Shown here: one piece after another, positions 5,324-51,312 of the stretch
Layout: each line of letters starts with the position of its first letter
How positions within the stretch are numbered: the first letter of the stretch is position 1
Origin: Escherichia phage WaterSpirit
Length of the DNA stretch: 51,324 nucleotides
Sequence record: OR896833.1
Strand: one strand, 5' to 3'
Translations under genes and position numbers: made by a program
The notes under the pieces: generated by a model
Told to the model about the DNA's origin: nothing
Database searches by the model: none
The model's input: only the letters and a program-made list of their open reading frames with translations

Positions 5324-5328
5324 AATTA

Positions 5329-5354
5329 AGGCGCTCGCTTGAGCGCCTTTTTTT
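5329..5354 (+). terminator. Intrinsic terminator (AGGCGCTC-GCTT-GAGCGCCT + T7)
   Basis: Perfect 8-bp stem, 4-nt loop, T-run. Confidence 0.65.
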
Positions 5355-6157: not shown

Positions 6158-6206
6158 TGAATACCACAAAATAGATTTGCACCTTTAACCAAAAGTGCTA
6201 TCATGA

Positions 6207-6234
6207 GGCTGTTACTTGTTAACAGCCTTTTTTT
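6207..6234 (+). terminator. Hairpin (GGCTGTTAA/TTAACAGCC) plus T7 immediately upstream of major capsid gene
   Basis: 9-bp stem, 4-nt loop, T-run; could be terminator or mRNA-stabilising/processing hairpin. Confidence 0.5.
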
Positions 6235-7234: not shown

Positions 7235-7262
7235 GGGGAGCCTTAAGGGTTCCCCTTTTTAT
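7235..7262 (+). terminator. Intrinsic terminator (GGGGA..TCCCC + T5)
   Basis: GC stem followed by TTTTT directly after the capsid gene stop. Confidence 0.7.
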
Positions 7263-7545: not shown

Positions 7546-7591
7546 TAATTGGGGCGCTTATGCGCCCCTTGTCACATCTGGAGAAAACAAA

Positions 7592-8011
7592 ATGGTAGAT
7601 GAATTTTACACAGACGCTGAAATCATGCAGCAAATCGTGAAGTTAGCGCCGCCAATGCAACAAGTTGATCCCGATTTAATTGTGGCATGGATTGAGCTTG
7701 CTAAAGAGTTTGTTTGCAAAAAGCGGTTTAAAAACTCATACCCTAAAGCGGTTGCGCTTTACACCTTGCACCTTATGACGTTGGACGGAGCTATGAAACA
7801 GGAAGGTGAGAGCGTGGAGAGTTACTCACGCCGTATTGCGTCGTTTTCCCTGACTGGAGAATTTAGTCAGACGTTTGACCGCGTGACCAATGACGCAAGC
7901 GGAAAGATGATCCGCCAGACACCGTGGGGAAAAATGTACGAGGCGCTAAACCGTAAGCATGGTGGCGGATTTGGCCTGGTAACTGGATTGCGCCGGAGGT
8001 GTTGCCGATGA
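7592..8011 (+). CDS. Putative head-tail connector/adaptor protein
   Basis: 139 aa from ATG 7592 (RBS GGAGAAAA); position between capsid and tail genes. Confidence 0.35.
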
Positions 8012-9869: not shown

Positions 9870-9875
9870 TTACAA

Positions 9876-9897
9876 GGGGGCGTTGCGCCCCTTTTTT
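9876..9897 (+). terminator. Intrinsic terminator (GGGGCG-TTG-CGCCCC + T6)
   Basis: 6-bp GC stem, T-run, directly after major tail gene. Confidence 0.7.
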
Positions 9898-10594: not shown

Positions 10595-10601
10595 CAATCA
10601 A

Positions 10602-10623
10602 AGCGCCTACGGGCGCTTTTTTA
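10602..10623 (+). terminator. Hairpin (AGCGCC-TACG-GGCGCT) plus T-run
   Basis: Direct read after the T-frame stop. Confidence 0.5.
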
Positions 10624-10642: not shown

Positions 10643-13567
10643 ATGGCTGATAAATACGCAGGCTTAACACTTGGCGTTGATGTGTCGCAGGTCACGAATG
10701 CTGTTAAATCATTGCAGCAGTTCAAGAAGGCCAACGACGACGCAAAGAGCAGCGTCGAGGGATTCGTTGATACTGAGGCAATCGCACGACAGCAGGCTAA
10801 ACAGCTTGCCGAGGAATTGCGCAGGCAGCGAGCGGAGTTTAGAAAAATTCAGGACTCCATTGATCCTACATCGGCAAAAATGGATAAGTTGCGACAAGCG
10901 GCATCACAGCTTGATTCCCTTTGGAAAAAAGGCGTAGTGCCGGATGATACTTTCTTTGAGCTTGGCGCTATCTTGGAAACGCAGCAGAATAAGCTGATCG
11001 CCACAAAGAAAGCATTAACCGAAGAAGGCCGAGCAGCGGCAGAGGAAGCGAAACAGAAAGCCCGTGCAGAGGCTGAGGCGCGTAAATTCATCTCTGCATT
11101 GCAACAGCAAGCTGAGGCAGCAGGGAAAACCAGAGAGGAATTGCTGGAGATTCGCGCCGCACAACTAGGGGTAAGTGCTGAGGCAGCGCCATTTATCTCG
11201 CAGATGAAAGCGCAGGATAAGCAAGCCCAAAAATTAGGCATCTCAATGGGACAATATCGGCAGGCTATGAGAATGCTTCCGGCGCAGATCACTGATGTTG
11301 TCACTTCGCTTGCTTCCGGCATGCCTGTATGGCTGGTTGCTATCCAGCAAGGGGGACAGATTAAGGACTCTTTCGGCGGAATCTCTAACACGTTCAAAGC
11401 GTTGTTGTCGTACCTTAATCCGGTAAATGTTGGCGTTGGTGCGCTTGTTGTTTCTCTGGGTGCTTTGGTGAAAGCGGGTTATGATTCCTACTCTTCGCAA
11501 CGAAACTTGCATGAGGCGTTAGTCCTTACTGGAGGTTATGCCGGAACTAACGCGGCGCAATTCGAAAAGATGGCGCAGGACATCAACAGTAGCACGAATG
11601 CAACGATTGGAAGTATCCGCAACATTGCAACCGAGCTTGCAAGATCCGGTAAGTTTACGATTACCCAAATCAGGGCAATCACCAAAACGACTGCGCAATG
11701 GTCAGCGGTAACGGGCGAATCAAGCGGAAAGATTACGGAATACTTTAACAAGATTGCTGATGATCCGGTCAAAGGTCTGGCTAAGCTAAACGAAGAATTT
11801 AACTTCCTGAAACAAGGCCAGCTAACCTATATCGCCGACCTTGAAAAAACCAGCGGCAAAACTGCGGCAGTAACACGGGCGACCGAGCTATTCGCCGATG
11901 TAATGGAGCAACGCCTTGCCAACCTTGCCGATTCGGCAACGCCGTTAGAAAAGATGTGGGACGACGTGCGCAAGTGGGCTTCTGACGCCTGGGGGTGGGT
12001 AGGCGATCACACAATTGGTGCGCTTAACCTGATCACTGACGTTGTGGCGGCAACGGTTGAGCAGGTTCGCTACTTGCTTAATCAGGGTGATATTCTGATC
12101 GGTGAGTTTGTTATTTCTGCCACTAAAGCGATGCAGAACATCCCAGGACTTAGCGGTGTTGGCGATGAATTTATCAAGCAGCAGCAGGAAATCATCGACA
12201 AGAGCAAGAAGGAAAACGAAGAACTGGCGAAGTCCATCGAAGAACGCGACGCGCGAGTCAGAAAGGGCGAGATGGGTTACATTGAAATGATGCGTGAACG
12301 CGCGGCTACAGAGCAGCAGTATTCAGAGAAGACGCGCGAAGCAATCAGGAAAGAGGCCGAAGAACTGGCGAAGCGTGACAAAGCACGTTCTCAAAAGGTC
12401 AAAGTGTCGGCTGGAGACAGGATTGAGGATCAGTATCAGCGAGACATTGTTGCACTGGAGACTCAATTGCGAGTATTGAAGGAGCACGAAACTGTCATTG
12501 CATCAATCAGCCAGCAGCGCCGGACGTTATGGACTGAGCAAGCAAAAATCCAGGTATTGCAGGAAGCATCACAGAAACGCCAGCTTACTGACGAAGAAAA
12601 AAGCATTATTGCCAACAAGGATAAGATCCTTTCGCTGGCAGAGCAGCGGGCTATACTTGGCGACCAGATCCAGTTGCAGGATACATCAATTAAATTCTTG
12701 CATCGTCAAAAGGAAACGCTTCAATCGCTTGAGCTACAGCAAAAAGGCATGAGCGACCGAGAGACGCAAAGGGAGCTTGAACGGCAACGCATCGTCACTG
12801 ACTGGCTGGCAAAAGGAGGTCAGCTTACTGATGCAAGACTCGCCGAGATGATTGATAAGATCAACGAAGTCTACGCAATGCAAGATGAGTTGAGCATGAA
12901 CTCAATCGCAGGGATTGAACGCTCTACGAAAAACTGGATTGATTCGGCTATGGATTTGGGCGGTCAATTTGGTAACGTAATGACCAACGCGTTAAACGGA
13001 ATCAGCGATCAGTTTGTGGAGCTATTGAGCACAGGAAAAAGCAGTTTTAAAGACTTTGCATCTTCAATCATCAAAATGATTATGAACATCATTACGCAGT
13101 TGAGTATTGCCTACGCAATTCAGGCAGCGATGGGATGGGTTAGCGGAAGTCCTAAAACTGGCGGCGGATCTGGTCAGTCATTCCCCGTTCCGTCATTCCG
13201 TCCTCGCGGCTTCTCTGATGGGGGTTACACTGGCGACGGCGGGAAATATGATGCGGCTGGCGTGGTTCACAAGGGTGAATTTGTCATGACGAAGGAGGCA
13301 ACGAAGCGGATCGGAGTCGGAAACCTTTACAAGCTGATGCGCGGTTATGCTAACGGCGGCGTGGTTGGTGGTTCCAGCTATAGCGGCGGTGGCATCAATG
13401 CTGGAGCGGCGCAATTCAATATCGGCGGGATTAGCGTTGATATTAACAACGGTAGCGATCCGAAAGGTATCGAAACTGGCGTTAAGATGATTTTCACCGA
13501 TATGATTAAACGTTCCTGTACGCAGGGCGGCGAAGTTTACGAATTTGTTATGAGCAAGCGAGGCTAA
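10643..13567 (+). CDS. Tail tape measure protein
   Basis: 974 aa from ATG 10643; long coiled-coil/Ala-Gln-rich protein with Gly-rich C-terminus; position before M/L/K/I/J. Confidence 0.9.
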   Translation: MADKYAGLTLGVDVSQVTNAVKSLQQFKKANDDAKSSVEGFVDTEAIARQQAKQLAEELRRQRAEFRKIQDSIDPTSAKMDKLRQAASQLDSLWKKGVVPDDTFFELGAILETQQNKLIATKKALTEEGRAAAEEAKQKARAEAEARKFISALQQQAEAAGKTREELLEIRAAQLGVSAEAAPFISQMKAQDKQAQKLGISMGQYRQAMRMLPAQITDVVTSLASGMPVWLVAIQQGGQIKDSFGGISNTFKALLSYLNPVNVGVGALVVSLGALVKAGYDSYSSQRNLHEALVLTGGYAGTNAAQFEKMAQDINSSTNATIGSIRNIATELARSGKFTITQIRAITKTTAQWSAVTGESSGKITEYFNKIADDPVKGLAKLNEEFNFLKQGQLTYIADLEKTSGKTAAVTRATELFADVMEQRLANLADSATPLEKMWDDVRKWASDAWGWVGDHTIGALNLITDVVAATVEQVRYLLNQGDILIGEFVISATKAMQNIPGLSGVGDEFIKQQQEIIDKSKKENEELAKSIEERDARVRKGEMGYIEMMRERAATEQQYSEKTREAIRKEAEELAKRDKARSQKVKVSAGDRIEDQYQRDIVALETQLRVLKEHETVIASISQQRRTLWTEQAKIQVLQEASQKRQLTDEEKSIIANKDKILSLAEQRAILGDQIQLQDTSIKFLHRQKETLQSLELQQKGMSDRETQRELERQRIVTDWLAKGGQLTDARLAEMIDKINEVYAMQDELSMNSIAGIERSTKNWIDSAMDLGGQFGNVMTNALNGISDQFVELLSTGKSSFKDFASSIIKMIMNIITQLSIAYAIQAAMGWVSGSPKTGGGSGQSFPVPSFRPRGFSDGGYTGDGGKYDAAGVVHKGEFVMTKEATKRIGVGNLYKLMRGYANGGVVGGSSYSGGGINAGAAQFNIGGISVDINNGSDPKGIETGVKMIFTDMIKRSCTQGGEVYEFVMSKRG

Positions 13568-13920: not shown

Positions 13921-13926
13921 AACACA

Positions 13927-13950
13927 GGCCGCTTTTGTGCGGCCTTTTTA
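13927..13950 (+). terminator. Intrinsic terminator (GGCCGC-TTTTGT-GCGGCC + T5)
   Basis: Perfect 6-bp stem plus T-run between M and L genes. Confidence 0.6.
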
Positions 13951-19714: not shown

Positions 19715-19740
19715 AAAAGGGGGCATAGCCCCCTTTAATT
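19713..19740. terminator. Bidirectional intrinsic terminator (A6-GGGGGC-ATA-GCCCCC-T-rich)
   Basis: Hairpin flanked by A-run and T-rich run between convergent J and minus-strand operon. Confidence 0.7.
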
Positions 19741-42978: not shown

Positions 42979-43242
42979 ATGAATAAGGCATTAATGGCGG
43001 TTTTTATGGCAACAGCATTCCTTACCGGATGTAATGGTGATGGTGCTTACGTCGATGCACAAATGGCTAACCCTGCCGATACTTACAACGTCAGAAAACT
43101 ATTTACAGTTGATGGTTGCGATGTGTACAGGTTCAGCGATAGCCGATACGTGTACTTTACCAACTGCCAGGGTAGCGCAAACTGGTCAACTAACGAAGGT
43201 AAGTCGGTTAGTCACTACCAGAACACAACAAACGTTAAATAG
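42979..43242 (+). CDS. Early lipoprotein (87 aa)
   Basis: RBS GAGGAGAAA; signal peptide with lipobox LTGC; two Cys pairs in mature part. Confidence 0.5.
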   Translation: MNKALMAVFMATAFLTGCNGDGAYVDAQMANPADTYNVRKLFTVDGCDVYRFSDSRYVYFTNCQGSANWSTNEGKSVSHYQNTTNVK

Positions 43243-43282: not shown

Positions 43283-43288
43283 ACACAC

Positions 43289-43484
43289 ATAGACGGGCGG
43301 CAAGGATTGCTGCGGGAGAGGAGCGACGCAGGGGCTTGATCGAAGTGTCAGGATTCCCAACCGTGAGGCCAGAACTATCACACTCGCCACCAGGCAGAAC
43401 GCTAGATAGGTCACTGAACTGAGGCTACCGACGAAGTGAAGCCCGTCACCAAAGATTAAACGGTTATTTATGTGAAAGGGGTTA
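43289..43484 (+). ncRNA. Candidate structured RNA / long structured 5' leader
   Basis: About 195 nt GC-rich non-coding segment between a promoter and the next RBS; long-range complementarity GACGGG (43292-43297) with CCCGTC (43442-43447) plus several local stems. Not verified by folding or homology. Confidence 0.25.
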
Positions 43485-43667
43485 ATGATGGATAAAATCA
43501 TCAAAATGAGCGAAGTCAAACCGGGAATGATGGTTAAGTTTGCTGGCAAATATCGCCTGGTGCTGGATAACTGCCGCAAAGAGAACATTCTCACCATTCG
43601 CGTTAACGGCAAGGCGCAGCTATTCGCCCCCAACGCAGATATTAATGTTGAGGTAAGAATTAAGTAA
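43485..43667 (+). CDS. Hypothetical protein (60 aa)
   Basis: RBS AAAGGGG upstream. Confidence 0.3.
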   Translation: MMDKIIKMSEVKPGMMVKFAGKYRLVLDNCRKENILTIRVNGKAQLFAPNADINVEVRIK

Positions 43668-49585: not shown

Positions 49586-49714
49586 ATGGGTGAGTACAAA
49601 CAGCCTTCGCAGTGGTGCAAAGAGAAGCAGGAGGAAGCACTGGAGCGCGGAGATGTAGAAGAAGCTATGAACTATTTCAAACTTGCGGAAGAATGGAAGG
49701 GGAGAGGATACTGA
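49586..49714 (+). CDS. Small hypothetical protein (42 aa), below ORF-track cutoff
   Basis: RBS AAGGTG; stop overlaps next ATG (TGATG). Confidence 0.25.
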   Translation: MGEYKQPSQWCKEKQEEALERGDVEEAMNYFKLAEEWKGRGY

Positions 49715-49944
49715 TGTTCGGCATGAATGAGGCGCAATTCAACGCAGCTAAACGCCAGGCTAAAAAGTGCGGCGAGGCGATGAAAGCGGATGTAGAAAAG
49801 CGCGGGAAGTATGTTGATGAAGTAATGAAGAGCATCATTGCAGAGCACTACCAACCAATCGCGCCAATGTTGACGATCACGCAATTTATCTGGCTGTGCG
49901 GTTACTTGCGCGGGAGGTGGGGTAATGCTTTCGACCGCGAATGA
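49714..49944 (+). CDS. Hypothetical protein (76 aa)
   Basis: ORF from ATG 49714. Confidence 0.3.
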   Translation: MFGMNEAQFNAAKRQAKKCGEAMKADVEKRGKYVDEVMKSIIAEHYQPIAPMLTITQFIWLCGYLRGRWGNAFDRE

Positions 49945-50075
49945 TTGACAACGTTGTCATGATTGGATAGCATCAATCCCGTAAACGTAAGAGCGGCCTT
50001 GCTGCCGAACGCGTGACGCGATAGTCACAAACAACGGCGCTATGCTGGGACACTGTAAGACGTAGCGCCTTTTTT
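49945..50075 (+). promoter_or_regulatory. Palindromic operator-like site (TGACAACGTTGTCA) within TTGACA element, followed by hairpin + T6
   Basis: Perfect 14-bp palindrome at 49946-49959; GGCGCTA/TAGCGCC stem at 50036-50069 followed by TTTTTT. Confidence 0.3.
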
Positions 50076-50089
50076 ACGGAGCAAATAAA

Positions 50090-50323
50090 ATGCAAAAGTT
50101 CAAACTTACAATTGCCTTTCGCGATGAGGTCATTCATCCTTTCTACGGTAGCTTTGATAAATGCTTTACGGTAGAAGTCACAGAAAATCAGCTTAATGGT
50201 GATGATACGTGTATTTCTATCGGTGATGTTGCCTACCCGATTCATAATATTACTTGCATTAAGCGTGAGGTTATCGCCAGTGATTTACAAGGTGAAACTA
50301 ACGATTCGACGGATGGGGCGTAA
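50090..50323 (+). CDS. Hypothetical protein (77 aa)
   Basis: ORF from ATG 50090. Confidence 0.3.
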   Translation: MQKFKLTIAFRDEVIHPFYGSFDKCFTVEVTENQLNGDDTCISIGDVAYPIHNITCIKREVIASDLQGETNDSTDGA

Positions 50324-50461
50324 TTGCTCATCTTGCAAACAAGATTTTGAATGTGAGGTTGCGGCCTTTAATGCAGAGCACGCCGTTAACCTTGCAAAAC
50401 GCCTTTCAGGTGCGAATCCTGAAACACATCAATTTTCCATTAACTTTGTAAAGGAAATGTC

Positions 50462-50704
50462 ATGAGTACGTTACTATTTGTTTTAAGTTATATCCTCACC
50501 TTTATTGCTGGCGCATTTGCATGGGGATGCCTGACGTCAGTCGCAATAGCTCATCTTGCACGTAAAGGCAAGGCGGCGTTTGCCATTTACTCAAGCAAGG
50601 ATGAGAAATGGCATGTTCGCGGTCGATACCTGCGGATCGGACAGGAAATTCACAAGCACATCAAAGCAATGGACGGAAAAGTGGAATACAAATTGCTTGA
50701 GTGA
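50462..50704 (+). CDS. Small membrane protein (80 aa)
   Basis: N-terminal hydrophobic segments. Confidence 0.3.
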   Translation: MSTLLFVLSYILTFIAGAFAWGCLTSVAIAHLARKGKAAFAIYSSKDEKWHVRGRYLRIGQEIHKHIKAMDGKVEYKLLE

Positions 50705-50713
50705 CGAAAAACA

Positions 50714-50738
50714 GCCCGCCTTTATGGCGGGTTTTTTA
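50714..50738 (+). terminator. Intrinsic terminator (CCCGCC-TTTAT-GGCGGG + T6)
   Basis: Direct read after the early-right gene block. Confidence 0.6.
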
Positions 50739-50790
50739 TTGCCTGTTATTTGCTATAATGATGCCCTGTTATCAAAAAGGAGAAATGATT

Positions 50791-51312
50791 ATGGCACGCA
50801 ATCCTGAGCCAGTAGTGAAGGTTCAAAACTTCAAGGAACTATATAACAAGAAATACGGAGATATTGTCACCGTGCAGGCCAGCAGCCGATACACACCGGA
50901 ACAGATTTTCGATCTGGCTGTGCGTTACTTCACCTGGGCAGAACAAAACCACATCCAGGCGGCAGAAACGGCATCTTTCCAGGGCGATGTGTATGAAAGC
51001 AAAGTGCATAAGCCGCGAGTGTTTACGCTGACCGGATTTTCTTTGTTTTCCGGTATCTCTGACAGCAACATCCAGAGACTGCGAAAACTCCCAGGTTACA
51101 GCGATGTTATGGCGTTTATTGATTCCGTTGTATTTGAGCAAAAATTTCAGCTTGCCGCTCACAACATGATTAACCCTGGCTTAATCGGCAAAGAGATCGG
51201 AATAGACAAGCCAGCAAGCATCAACGTTGAGGCCACGGCTGATTCCAGCATCGAATCCGTGACGGCTGAGGAAGTGCGCGAGGCTGTACGCGATATTCTG
51301 GATAATATCTAA
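50791..51312 (+). CDS. Terminase small subunit
   Basis: 173 aa from ATG 50791 (RBS AAGGAG); segment FTLTGFSLFSGISDSNIQR resembles the small-terminase HTH region; adjacent to the large terminase in the circular map. Confidence 0.6.
   Translation: MARNPEPVVKVQNFKELYNKKYGDIVTVQASSRYTPEQIFDLAVRYFTWAEQNHIQAAETASFQGDVYESKVHKPRVFTLTGFSLFSGISDSNIQRLRKLPGYSDVMAFIDSVVFEQKFQLAAHNMINPGLIGKEIGIDKPASINVEATADSSIESVTAEEVREAVRDILDNI

Follow-up and report, generated by a model that had tools for sequence, protein, structure and literature searches.

The window analysed here is the whole 51,324-bp DNA of Escherichia phage WaterSpirit (OR896833.1), the entire genome of a T1-like siphophage (Drexlerviridae, Tempevirinae, Warwickvirus), and the element in question occupies a 145-nt gap between a gene of 76 amino acids (49714-49944; phrog_303) and an open reading frame (ORF) of 77 amino acids (50090-50323). 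The plus strand carries the terminase large subunit and structural genes from position 1 to ~19.7 kb, and small early genes from ~41 kb up to the small terminase gene TerS (50791-51312), which places the element ~0.7 kb 5' of TerS. The gene order of Escherichia phage MatMar is colinear with the window, and the segment 49500-50800 is 99-99.8% identical to Escherichia phages BEBK14, MatMar and Jahat_MG145. Comparison with relatives indicated that the gap holds a sigma-70-type promoter followed by a predicted RNA of ~96 nt (about 49980-50075), composed of a single-stranded 5' box, three hairpins and a terminator. The features are the following.

49942-49944: stop codon TGA of the upstream phrog_303 gene
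49945-49950, plus strand: -35 hexamer TTGACA, starting right after the TGA stop; TTGAC is invariant in alignment A1
49946-49959: perfect 14-bp palindrome TGACAACGTTGTCA, made of the -35 hexamer and the first spacer bases and judged incidental
49959-49966, plus strand: spacer motif ATGATTGG, the local form of CTGAYYGG, which abuts the -10 hexamer in nearly all relatives
49961-49965 and 49974-49978: GATTG and CAATC, which bracket the -10 hexamer
49968-49973, plus strand: -10 hexamer TAGCAT, 17 bp from the -35 hexamer
49980-49993, plus strand: predicted 5' box (DNA CGTAAACGTAAGAG, RNA CGUAAACGUAAGAG), 14 nt, single-stranded
49994-50007, plus strand: hairpin 1, CGGC-CUUGCU-GCCG; 4 of 4 pairs changed on both sides, 96% of cells paired
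50008-50012, plus strand: linker AACGC, with AA and G invariant
50013-50028, plus strand: hairpin 2, GUGAC-GCGAUA-GUCAC; 5 of 5 pairs changed on both sides, 97.6% of cells paired, loop CG invariant
50029-50035, plus strand: A/C-rich linker AAACAAC, of which AAYAAC is also kept in T4-like homologues
50036-50069, plus strand: hairpin 3 (GGCGCTA...TAGCGCC), with a 9-bp outer stem, DNA GGCGCTATG / CGTAGCGCC; 8 of 11 pairs changed on both sides, 96.2% of cells paired
50070-50075, plus strand: U6 tract (TTTTTT in the DNA), completing an intrinsic terminator and forming the predicted 3' end of the RNA

The next ATG lies at 50090, 14 nt past the T-run, and a repeat finder returned an inverted repeat at 50030-50042 / 50063-50075. 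A first-pass annotation of the window had already listed the palindrome, the TTGACA, the GATTG/CAATC repeat, the stem and the T-run, all of which we found where it had placed them, and had proposed a repressor-controlled promoter followed by a short terminated transcript or an attenuator. Conservation, compensatory changes and the hairpin with its T6 run support the promoter and the short structured, terminated transcript; the palindromic operator did not survive the comparison with relatives described below.

A promoter scan matched TTGACA-17-TAGCAT to the consensus at 10 of 12 positions. Promoter-like matches in the region numbered 8 against 10.8 expected from shuffles, a count at which a single match is unremarkable, and only four promoters of the form TTGACN-(16-18)-TAnnnT, that of the element among them, occur in the whole genome. 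Since the features by themselves are statistically ordinary, the case for the element rests on comparison with relatives. Homologous gaps were taken from GenBank phages, IMG/VR and metagenomes, resulting in 31 distinct variants from at least 10 genera (Warwick-, Hanriver-, Henuseptima-, Changchun-, Tls-, Tuna-, Nouzilly-, Guelph-, Kyungwon- and Webervirus). The promoter was kept in all 31, with a -35 hexamer (TTGACN in 30 of them), a 17-bp spacer (18 bp in T1) and a TAnnnT -10 hexamer, and its spacing was maintained despite insertions and deletions inside the spacer. The -10 hexamer is followed by 5-6 variable nucleotides and then by an abrupt return of conservation, from which the transcription start is predicted at ~49980 +/- 2; conservation that resumes at this distance fits a functional product beginning at the transcription start.

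Covariation was evaluated in alignment A2 for hairpins 1 and 2 (25 distinct sequences) and in alignment A3 for hairpin 3 (17 distinct sequences, variable tip masked). Changes on both sides were observed in all nine pairs of hairpins 1 and 2, and 96.9% of the cells could pair, compared with 73.3 +/- 1.8% after shuffling and at most 58% with the partner slid, the shuffle values being statistics that overstate independence among related sequences and are not probabilities. The variants of stem 1 include CGGC/GCCG, GCGC/GCGC, GCCA/UGGU, GCUC/GAGC and CAGC/GCUG, and stem 2 occurs as GUGAC, GUGGC, GUAGC, GCAGC, GCGGC and GUGAG, each with a matching partner. Hairpin 3 showed double changes in 8 of 11 pairs, with 96.2% of cells pairing against at most 60% when slid. 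For the three hairpins combined, 17 of 20 pairs carry changes on both sides and more than 96% of the cells are paired. Judged by the slid controls and by the number of independent pair types, the three predicted helices are secure. Many G-U cells in the stems correspond to A-C mismatches on the opposite strand, indicating that the structure belongs to the plus-strand transcript.

The nucleotides that do not vary are all unpaired: they lie in the 5' box (T3, A6, C7, G12, A13 and G14, among 25 diverse sequences), the AA-G linker, the CG of the hairpin-2 loop and the UAAG of the hairpin-3 loop. Hairpin 3 in RNA form reads GGCGCUAUG-CU-GG-GACA-CU-GUAAGA-CGUAGCGCC, in which CU / GUAAGA form an internal loop, GG/CU are inner pairs and GACA is the cap; a RUAAGA motif is present both here and in the 5' box. 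Conservation and covariation of the promoter-RNA-terminator unit across its relatives is, on this comparative evidence, far beyond chance.

A conserved reading frame was looked for in the element and none was found; all three frames are interrupted by stops or shifted by insertions and deletions of lengths not divisible by three, and the variants share no conserved start codon. That the gap is a small protein-coding gene, as several GenBank records imply by annotating a hypothetical protein over the element, is contradicted by these stops and frame shifts; what is annotated as a coding sequence in phage G29-2 is the next gene extended upstream in frame. A signal acting as DNA, such as pac or another packaging or replication signal near the terminase genes, would agree with a position 0.7 kb 5' of TerS. 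However, the terminal repeat of T1, which starts at the packaging end, covers 1-2800 and the T1 element lies outside it at ~7591-7754, for which reason a pac site was rejected, and the asymmetry of G-U pairs between the strands favours RNA. Taken together, a DNA-level signal or a small gene is extremely improbable. In G29-2 gp23 (locus L002, 1293-1595) and damhaus_71 (locus L035, 1593-1895) the annotated coding sequence starts at an ATG inside hairpin 3; this is probably an over-extension of the next gene, the likely start of which is the ATG after the T-run.

The distribution of the element was investigated with a covariance model of the 5' domain, R1, which scored 65.9 bits over 49980-50035 in the window, 52-66 bits in seven genera and a weaker 14-32 bits in Guelphvirus and Webervirus. 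R1 found exactly one copy per genome, always after the phrog_303 gene and 0.5-1.5 kb 5' of TerS. A BLAST search with 13 concatenated variants matched 801 phage records, all of 44-52 kb, in which the annotation beneath the match was either "none" or "hypothetical protein". No match was obtained in 5,426 E. coli genomes by BLAST, nor among plasmids except for one 49.6-kb "plasmid", evidently a misfiled T1-like phage. When 185,579 genomes of bacteria and archaea were scanned for the pattern, five matches were returned, about the number estimated for chance; they occur in unrelated metagenome-assembled genomes, within apparently unrelated sequence and without stem complementarity. Rfam 15 gave nothing at E <= 10 in 49945-50075 and nothing at gathering score across the window; in nine other genera it yielded only one tRNA and a weak tmRNA-like match. 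The element is not mentioned in the searchable literature on small RNAs and transcriptomes of T1-like phages, TLS and Drexlerviridae. The 2024 re-annotation of TLS lists only three sigma-70 promoters, none of which is that of the element, and names open questions on transcription (PMC11447400). By sequence comparison, the element is shown to be a single-copy, family-wide, non-coding structured RNA.

Some records matched in this survey deserve comment. The 49.6-kb "Paraclostridium plasmid" CP124687.1 is a T1-like phage and ~20 UNVERIFIED "Campylobacter phage" genomes (MG0656xx; for example loci L036 and L038) are Hanrivervirus-type T1-like phages, so that the host or replicon labels of these entries are probably wrong. 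Enlarged elements were seen in two phages. In ACG-M12 (locus L066, 2304-2652) extra hairpins with GUAAGAC/CGUAAC are followed by tRNA-Arg(UCU) in the same unit, and in CS01 (locus L067, 2087-2465) the gap measures 379 nt and contains a sub-threshold tmRNA-like match (21.9 bits, E = 0.015).

The same comparison bears on the possibility of a repressor-controlled promoter, in which a phage helix-turn-helix protein would bind the 14-bp palindrome and/or the GATTG/CAATC repeat. Both dyads occupy classic operator positions, the palindrome overlapping the -35 hexamer and the second repeat flanking the -10 hexamer, and a transcriptional regulator is annotated in the near-identical MatMar. However, the dyad is confined to the 99%-identical BEBK14/MatMar/Jahat lineage; at its position the relatives carry TGACAACGATTTCC, TGACAACTCTTTCC, TGACGTAACGGCTC and the like, and we conclude that the palindrome is not an operator because it is absent from every relative outside that lineage. 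Perfect 14-bp palindromes are also ordinary in the window, with 7 occurrences against 4.0 +/- 2.1 expected from Markov simulations, 11.5% of which reach 7, and near-copies of this one number 3 in the genome against 2.6 expected, giving neither enrichment nor a second copy. The GATTG/CAATC repeat was retained only in a subset of relatives (G29-2, aalborv, A14b, BEK1-23), persisting in no more than a few Hanriverviruses, and is missing from most variants. By this comparison the 14-bp palindrome is a lineage-specific accident that has no part in the element, and control through either dyad is very improbable. A better operator candidate than the palindrome, or else a promoter element, is possibly the CTGAYYGG motif of the spacer; two other promoters of the window, both on the minus strand (40248 and 41833), likewise have this octamer directly beside the -10 hexamer.

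CTGAYYGG is over-represented 4-5x, with 27 sites in the window against ~6 expected and 28 in T1 (locus L089) against ~7. The sites in the window include 767, 3342, 4154, 7850, 40248- and 41833-, and the consensus can be extended to CTGAYTGGTT. Certain copies lie against -10 hexamers, others are the reverse strand of the ribosome-binding CCARTCAGGAG and many are intragenic, and no single explanation fits them all.

Most promoters of the genome belong to another class, aaATAGCACnnnTTGnTAAAA, defined by a 21-nt repeat in 14 copies. Copies of this repeat, aaATAGCACTTTTTGTTAAAAC, are located at 6200(-), 20978(-), 26998(+), 28566(+), 31083(+), 35521(-), 37688(-), 38365(-), 40277(-), 40777(-), 41861(-), 42472(+), 43240(+) and 48389(+); they mostly precede a TAnnnT hexamer and a conserved leader (…CATCGACAAC…GAGG) and contain the most over-represented 8-mers in the genome. 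In the window these repeats look like the main promoter class of the phage; the function of the 21-nt direct repeat of T1-like phages is listed as an open question in the TLS paper (PMC11447400). Between the copy at 43240 and a start codon at 43485, ~200 nt (43288-43484) are free of ORFs, and this stretch opens with CATAGACGGGCGGCAAGGATTGCTGCG, which is similar to the 5' end of the element RNA. A diverged second copy of the element at this promoter was considered and rejected, as R1 gave no match and the 197-nt leader folds no better than shuffles.

Hairpin 3 has a predicted free energy of -15.3 kcal/mol and is directly followed by U6, and in the window lineage the two are predicted to form a competent intrinsic terminator; our terminator scan did not call it since the loop exceeds 8 nt. 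Warwick-, Hanriver-, Henuseptima- and Webervirus carry the T-run, and about half of the genera (T1, Tls-, Changchun-, Nouzilly- and Guelphvirus) lack it. In the genera that have no U-tract, the last hairpin retains its loop motif (…CCGUAA) and a covarying stem.

Part of the element is shared with another phage family. Positions 50029-50077 of the window are 84% identical over 51 nt to an unannotated intergenic hairpin downstream of rIII in T4-like Winklervirus/Karamvirus phages, namely Serratia CHI14 and CBH8, Erwinia Gravdalen, Enterobacter KMB19 and Yersinia TG1. The T4-like hairpin displays the same features as hairpin 3: (i) the AAYAAC linker, (ii) a 9-bp stem, (iii) a CW / RUAAGA internal loop, (iv) a GG-GAAA-CC tip and (v) a U-rich tail. 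Its stem has undergone compensatory changes (GGCUCUA/UAGAGCU). It differs in lacking the 5' box and hairpins 1 and 2, a different RNA being found in front of it; R1 had no match at the T4-like loci, and a simple scan detected no sigma-70 promoter ahead of these copies. A metagenome scan for further partners of hairpin 3 uncovered only T1-like contexts and one chance match.

In TG1, one repeat between rIII and the shared hairpin is identical at 30 of 36 positions to the ToxI antitoxin of E. coli toxIN plasmids. The repeat, AGGTGATTCGCTACCTTAAGTGCGGCTAGAAAAC, lies on the minus strand of vB_YenM_TG1 (KP202158; locus L010) at 11847-11930 (compare locus L072, 830-1000) and is, judging from this identity, a candidate antitoxin mimic. 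On small plasmids of E. coli and Salmonella, toxN is preceded by ToxI in tandem copies, and a published primer (PMC5772629) corroborates the ToxI sequence. In CBH8 and KMB19 the corresponding versions match ToxI at 22-23 of 36 positions, near the baseline of 19/36, and no claim is made for them.

These observations bear on whether the gap is an ordinary promoter-terminator cassette, in which the hairpins would be transcription punctuation only and the RNA itself without function. Terminator-promoter modules are abundant in the genome, the late regions of T1-like phages have been described as terminator-flanked transcriptional modules (PMC11447400), and the PeSL cassettes, in which a stem-loop lies 5' of an early promoter acting directly on the gene that follows (PMC2839356, PMC4122927), are mobile among T4-type genomes (PMC4122927). 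The element resembles PeSLs in being a small modular cassette with a sigma-70-like promoter and a terminator hairpin, part of which has evidently been exchanged between phage families. Unlike in PeSLs, however, the promoter of the window comes first and ~96 nt of conserved structured RNA precede the terminator stem-loop, an order opposite to that reported (PMC4122927). Punctuation would not need three hairpins or invariant loop and linker nucleotides, nor would it explain that the internal loop of hairpin 3 is preserved in two phage families despite changes in the stems, or that hairpins 1-3 are retained in genera without any T-run. A role limited to punctuation is therefore quite improbable.

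Downstream of the element, two to three small ORFs (50090-50704) form a unit that is closed by a strong terminator at 50713-50740. Directly after this terminator and ahead of TerS is an extended -10 promoter, TGCTATAAT (50750-50758), and both were kept in all 14 genomes inspected. This TerS module (50713-50758), with the terminator AGCCCGCC…GGCGGGTTTTTT, then TGnTATAAT and then the TerS ribosome-binding site, has equivalents in 13 other genomes, and its terminator-then-promoter order resembles the PeSLs of T4-type phages. Since TerS has a terminator and a promoter of its own, the element heads a short separate unit and the late operon need not rely on the promoter of the element. Every family matched by the neighbouring proteins is of unknown function, and the label "inducer of pleiotropic effects", which some records give to the upstream gene, is a phrase absent from the searchable literature.

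The main rival explanation is that the RNA acts in cis, as the 5' untranslated leader of the small-gene unit 50090-50704, with hairpin 3 and U6 serving as a regulated terminator or attenuator. We hold this to be possible, though doubtful. In this scheme the conserved hairpins would bind a factor or ligand, or would modify the polymerase as put and nut sites do, and so set the level of read-through. Such a leader is suggested by T1 and by the TLS-like, W011D-like, GaoY1-like and ACG-M12-like phages, which have no T-run and in which 10-25 nt separate the last hairpin from the Shine-Dalgarno sequence and ATG that follow, as well as by the short distance, only 14 nt, between the T-run and the ATG in the window. 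A leader also agrees with the conserved strong terminator that closes the unit just before the TerS promoter. Further, an antitermination device would be useful to a co-directional late operon with at least eight strong intrinsic terminators. Those on the plus strand lie at 1597-1618, 5328-5349, 6205-6229, 7235-7255, 9874-9894, 10600-10619, 13926-13945 and 19716-19736; these eight sit between co-directional structural genes, and no promoter of the 21-nt-repeat class is present on that strand.

Several findings argue against a cis-acting leader. The first gene downstream is not kept across lineages; by eye, no antiterminator pairing covaries with the stem of hairpin 3; all 14 genomes inspected provide TerS with a terminator and an extended -10 promoter of its own; and hairpin 3 is found in T4-like phages behind a different upstream RNA, with no detectable promoter. 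An antiterminator protein is absent from the MatMar annotation, although no exhaustive protein search was made.

Two groups of phage RNAs invite comparison. The put sites of HK022 and the nut sites of lambda are promoter-proximal RNAs with a single-stranded box and then hairpins, located upstream of terminators in a phage operon, and the window RNA has the same box-then-hairpins layout. It differs from them in that the loop of hairpin 2 is a hexaloop and not a GNRA-like pentaloop, and we know of no sequence similarity between the window RNA and put or nut. The lambdoid PR'-6S RNA-tR' unit and oop RNA combine a constitutive sigma-70 promoter with an intrinsic terminator within about 100-200 nt and give a short, abundant transcript. 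The element shares with PR'-6S-tR' its orientation and its position shortly 5' of packaging and late genes. Unlike the lambdoid short RNAs, however, it has no Rfam or sequence relationship to them, no Q-like antiterminator is annotated in MatMar, and TerS has its own conserved promoter. The window RNA has a strongly structured and conserved body, and the 6S transcript is not known to require one.

The explanation that we prefer, taken as a whole package and with confidence only a little better than even, is that the element encodes an early, separately transcribed, trans-acting, protein-binding structured noncoding RNA. Host sigma-70 RNA polymerase would start at the near-consensus promoter (49945-49973) and transcribe from ~49980, and the promoter would be expected to fire early because it needs no phage factor. 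Hairpin 3 with U6 would end most transcripts at ~50075 in the window lineage, freeing the RNA of ~96 nt, and read-through would feed the two to three small ORFs up to the terminator at 50713-50740. The freed RNA would act via its conserved unpaired nucleotides, either as a decoy that sequesters a protein or as the ligand of a host factor, with the RUAAGA motifs of the 5' box and the hairpin-3 loop and the loop of hairpin 2 as the putative protein contacts. Action in trans is favoured because (i) it is the RNA that is conserved and not the downstream gene, the first of which differs between lineages, (ii) the element is modular, its 3' hairpin travelling with other small-RNA cargo in T4-like phages, (iii) one genus has a tRNA in the same transcription unit and (iv) a good terminator closes it in the window lineage. 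A further point in favour is the link, through the ToxI-like repeat of TG1, between hairpin 3 and the known decoy RNA discussed below. The U6 tail and the AAC-AAC linker could suit an Hfq-type RNA but are also compatible with the other explanations, and the T-run is missing in many genera.

A number of observations weigh against a trans-acting RNA. Both ends of the RNA and its stability are predicted, and the fold of the 96-nt sequence taken singly is only marginally better than shuffles (z = -1.75); the relatedness of the aligned sequences, mentioned above with the shuffle statistics, counts here as well. In T1, Tlsvirus, Changchunvirus, Nouzillyvirus and Guelphvirus, where the T-run is lacking, the RNA continues into the next Shine-Dalgarno sequence, and a leader fits these genera better. 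The 5' box resembles the short leader and Shine-Dalgarno sequence that follow the other promoters of the phage (CATCGACAAC...GAGG), and part of its conservation may be generic and not specific to this RNA. No antisense complementarity of at least 13 nt was found within the phage genome, the longest being 12 nt, which is chance level. Lastly, the window RNA matches ToxI at 19 of 36 positions, the baseline value, and has no tandem repeat. Matches of <=12 nt in the phage genome also led us to reject the candidate role of antisense regulator of another phage gene.

A more specific and speculative form of the trans-acting reading, which we consider unlikely as it stands, is that all T1-like phages make an immediate-early decoy RNA, the target of which would be an RNA-binding protein of the host, namely a global regulator or else a nuclease or toxin used in defence, and that this RNA is built on a "cargo plus hairpin 3" cassette shared with T4-like phages. 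A phage RNA that mimics ToxI is an established escape or anti-defence route (PMC3475682), and the pseudo-ToxI of Pectobacterium phage PhiTE (PMC3475682) is, like the RNA proposed here, a phage noncoding RNA that acts as a decoy for a host protein. Unlike pseudo-ToxI and ToxI, the window RNA is neither tandemly repeated nor similar to ToxI, and no host antitoxin matching it was found in E. coli genomes or plasmids. The link between the window RNA and the decoy RNAs is one of association, through the shared hairpin.

The regulation of T1-like phages is barely known, and a single-copy RNA supported by covariation in ~800 genomes gives a testable handle on the early biology of T1-type phages. T1 belongs to the classic T phages, and few groups of coliphages and Klebsiella phages are isolated as often as its relatives, the Drexlerviridae, which include candidates for therapy. 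The element is a candidate for a new Rfam family, and its recognition corrects the "hypothetical protein" annotations that overlie it. The hairpin held in common with T4-like phages, which in one of them lies beside a ToxI-like repeat, hints at modular carriage of small RNAs by phages. If the decoy proposal were true, RNA-based counter-defence would be a core, family-wide trait of a classic phage group and not a rare escape event.

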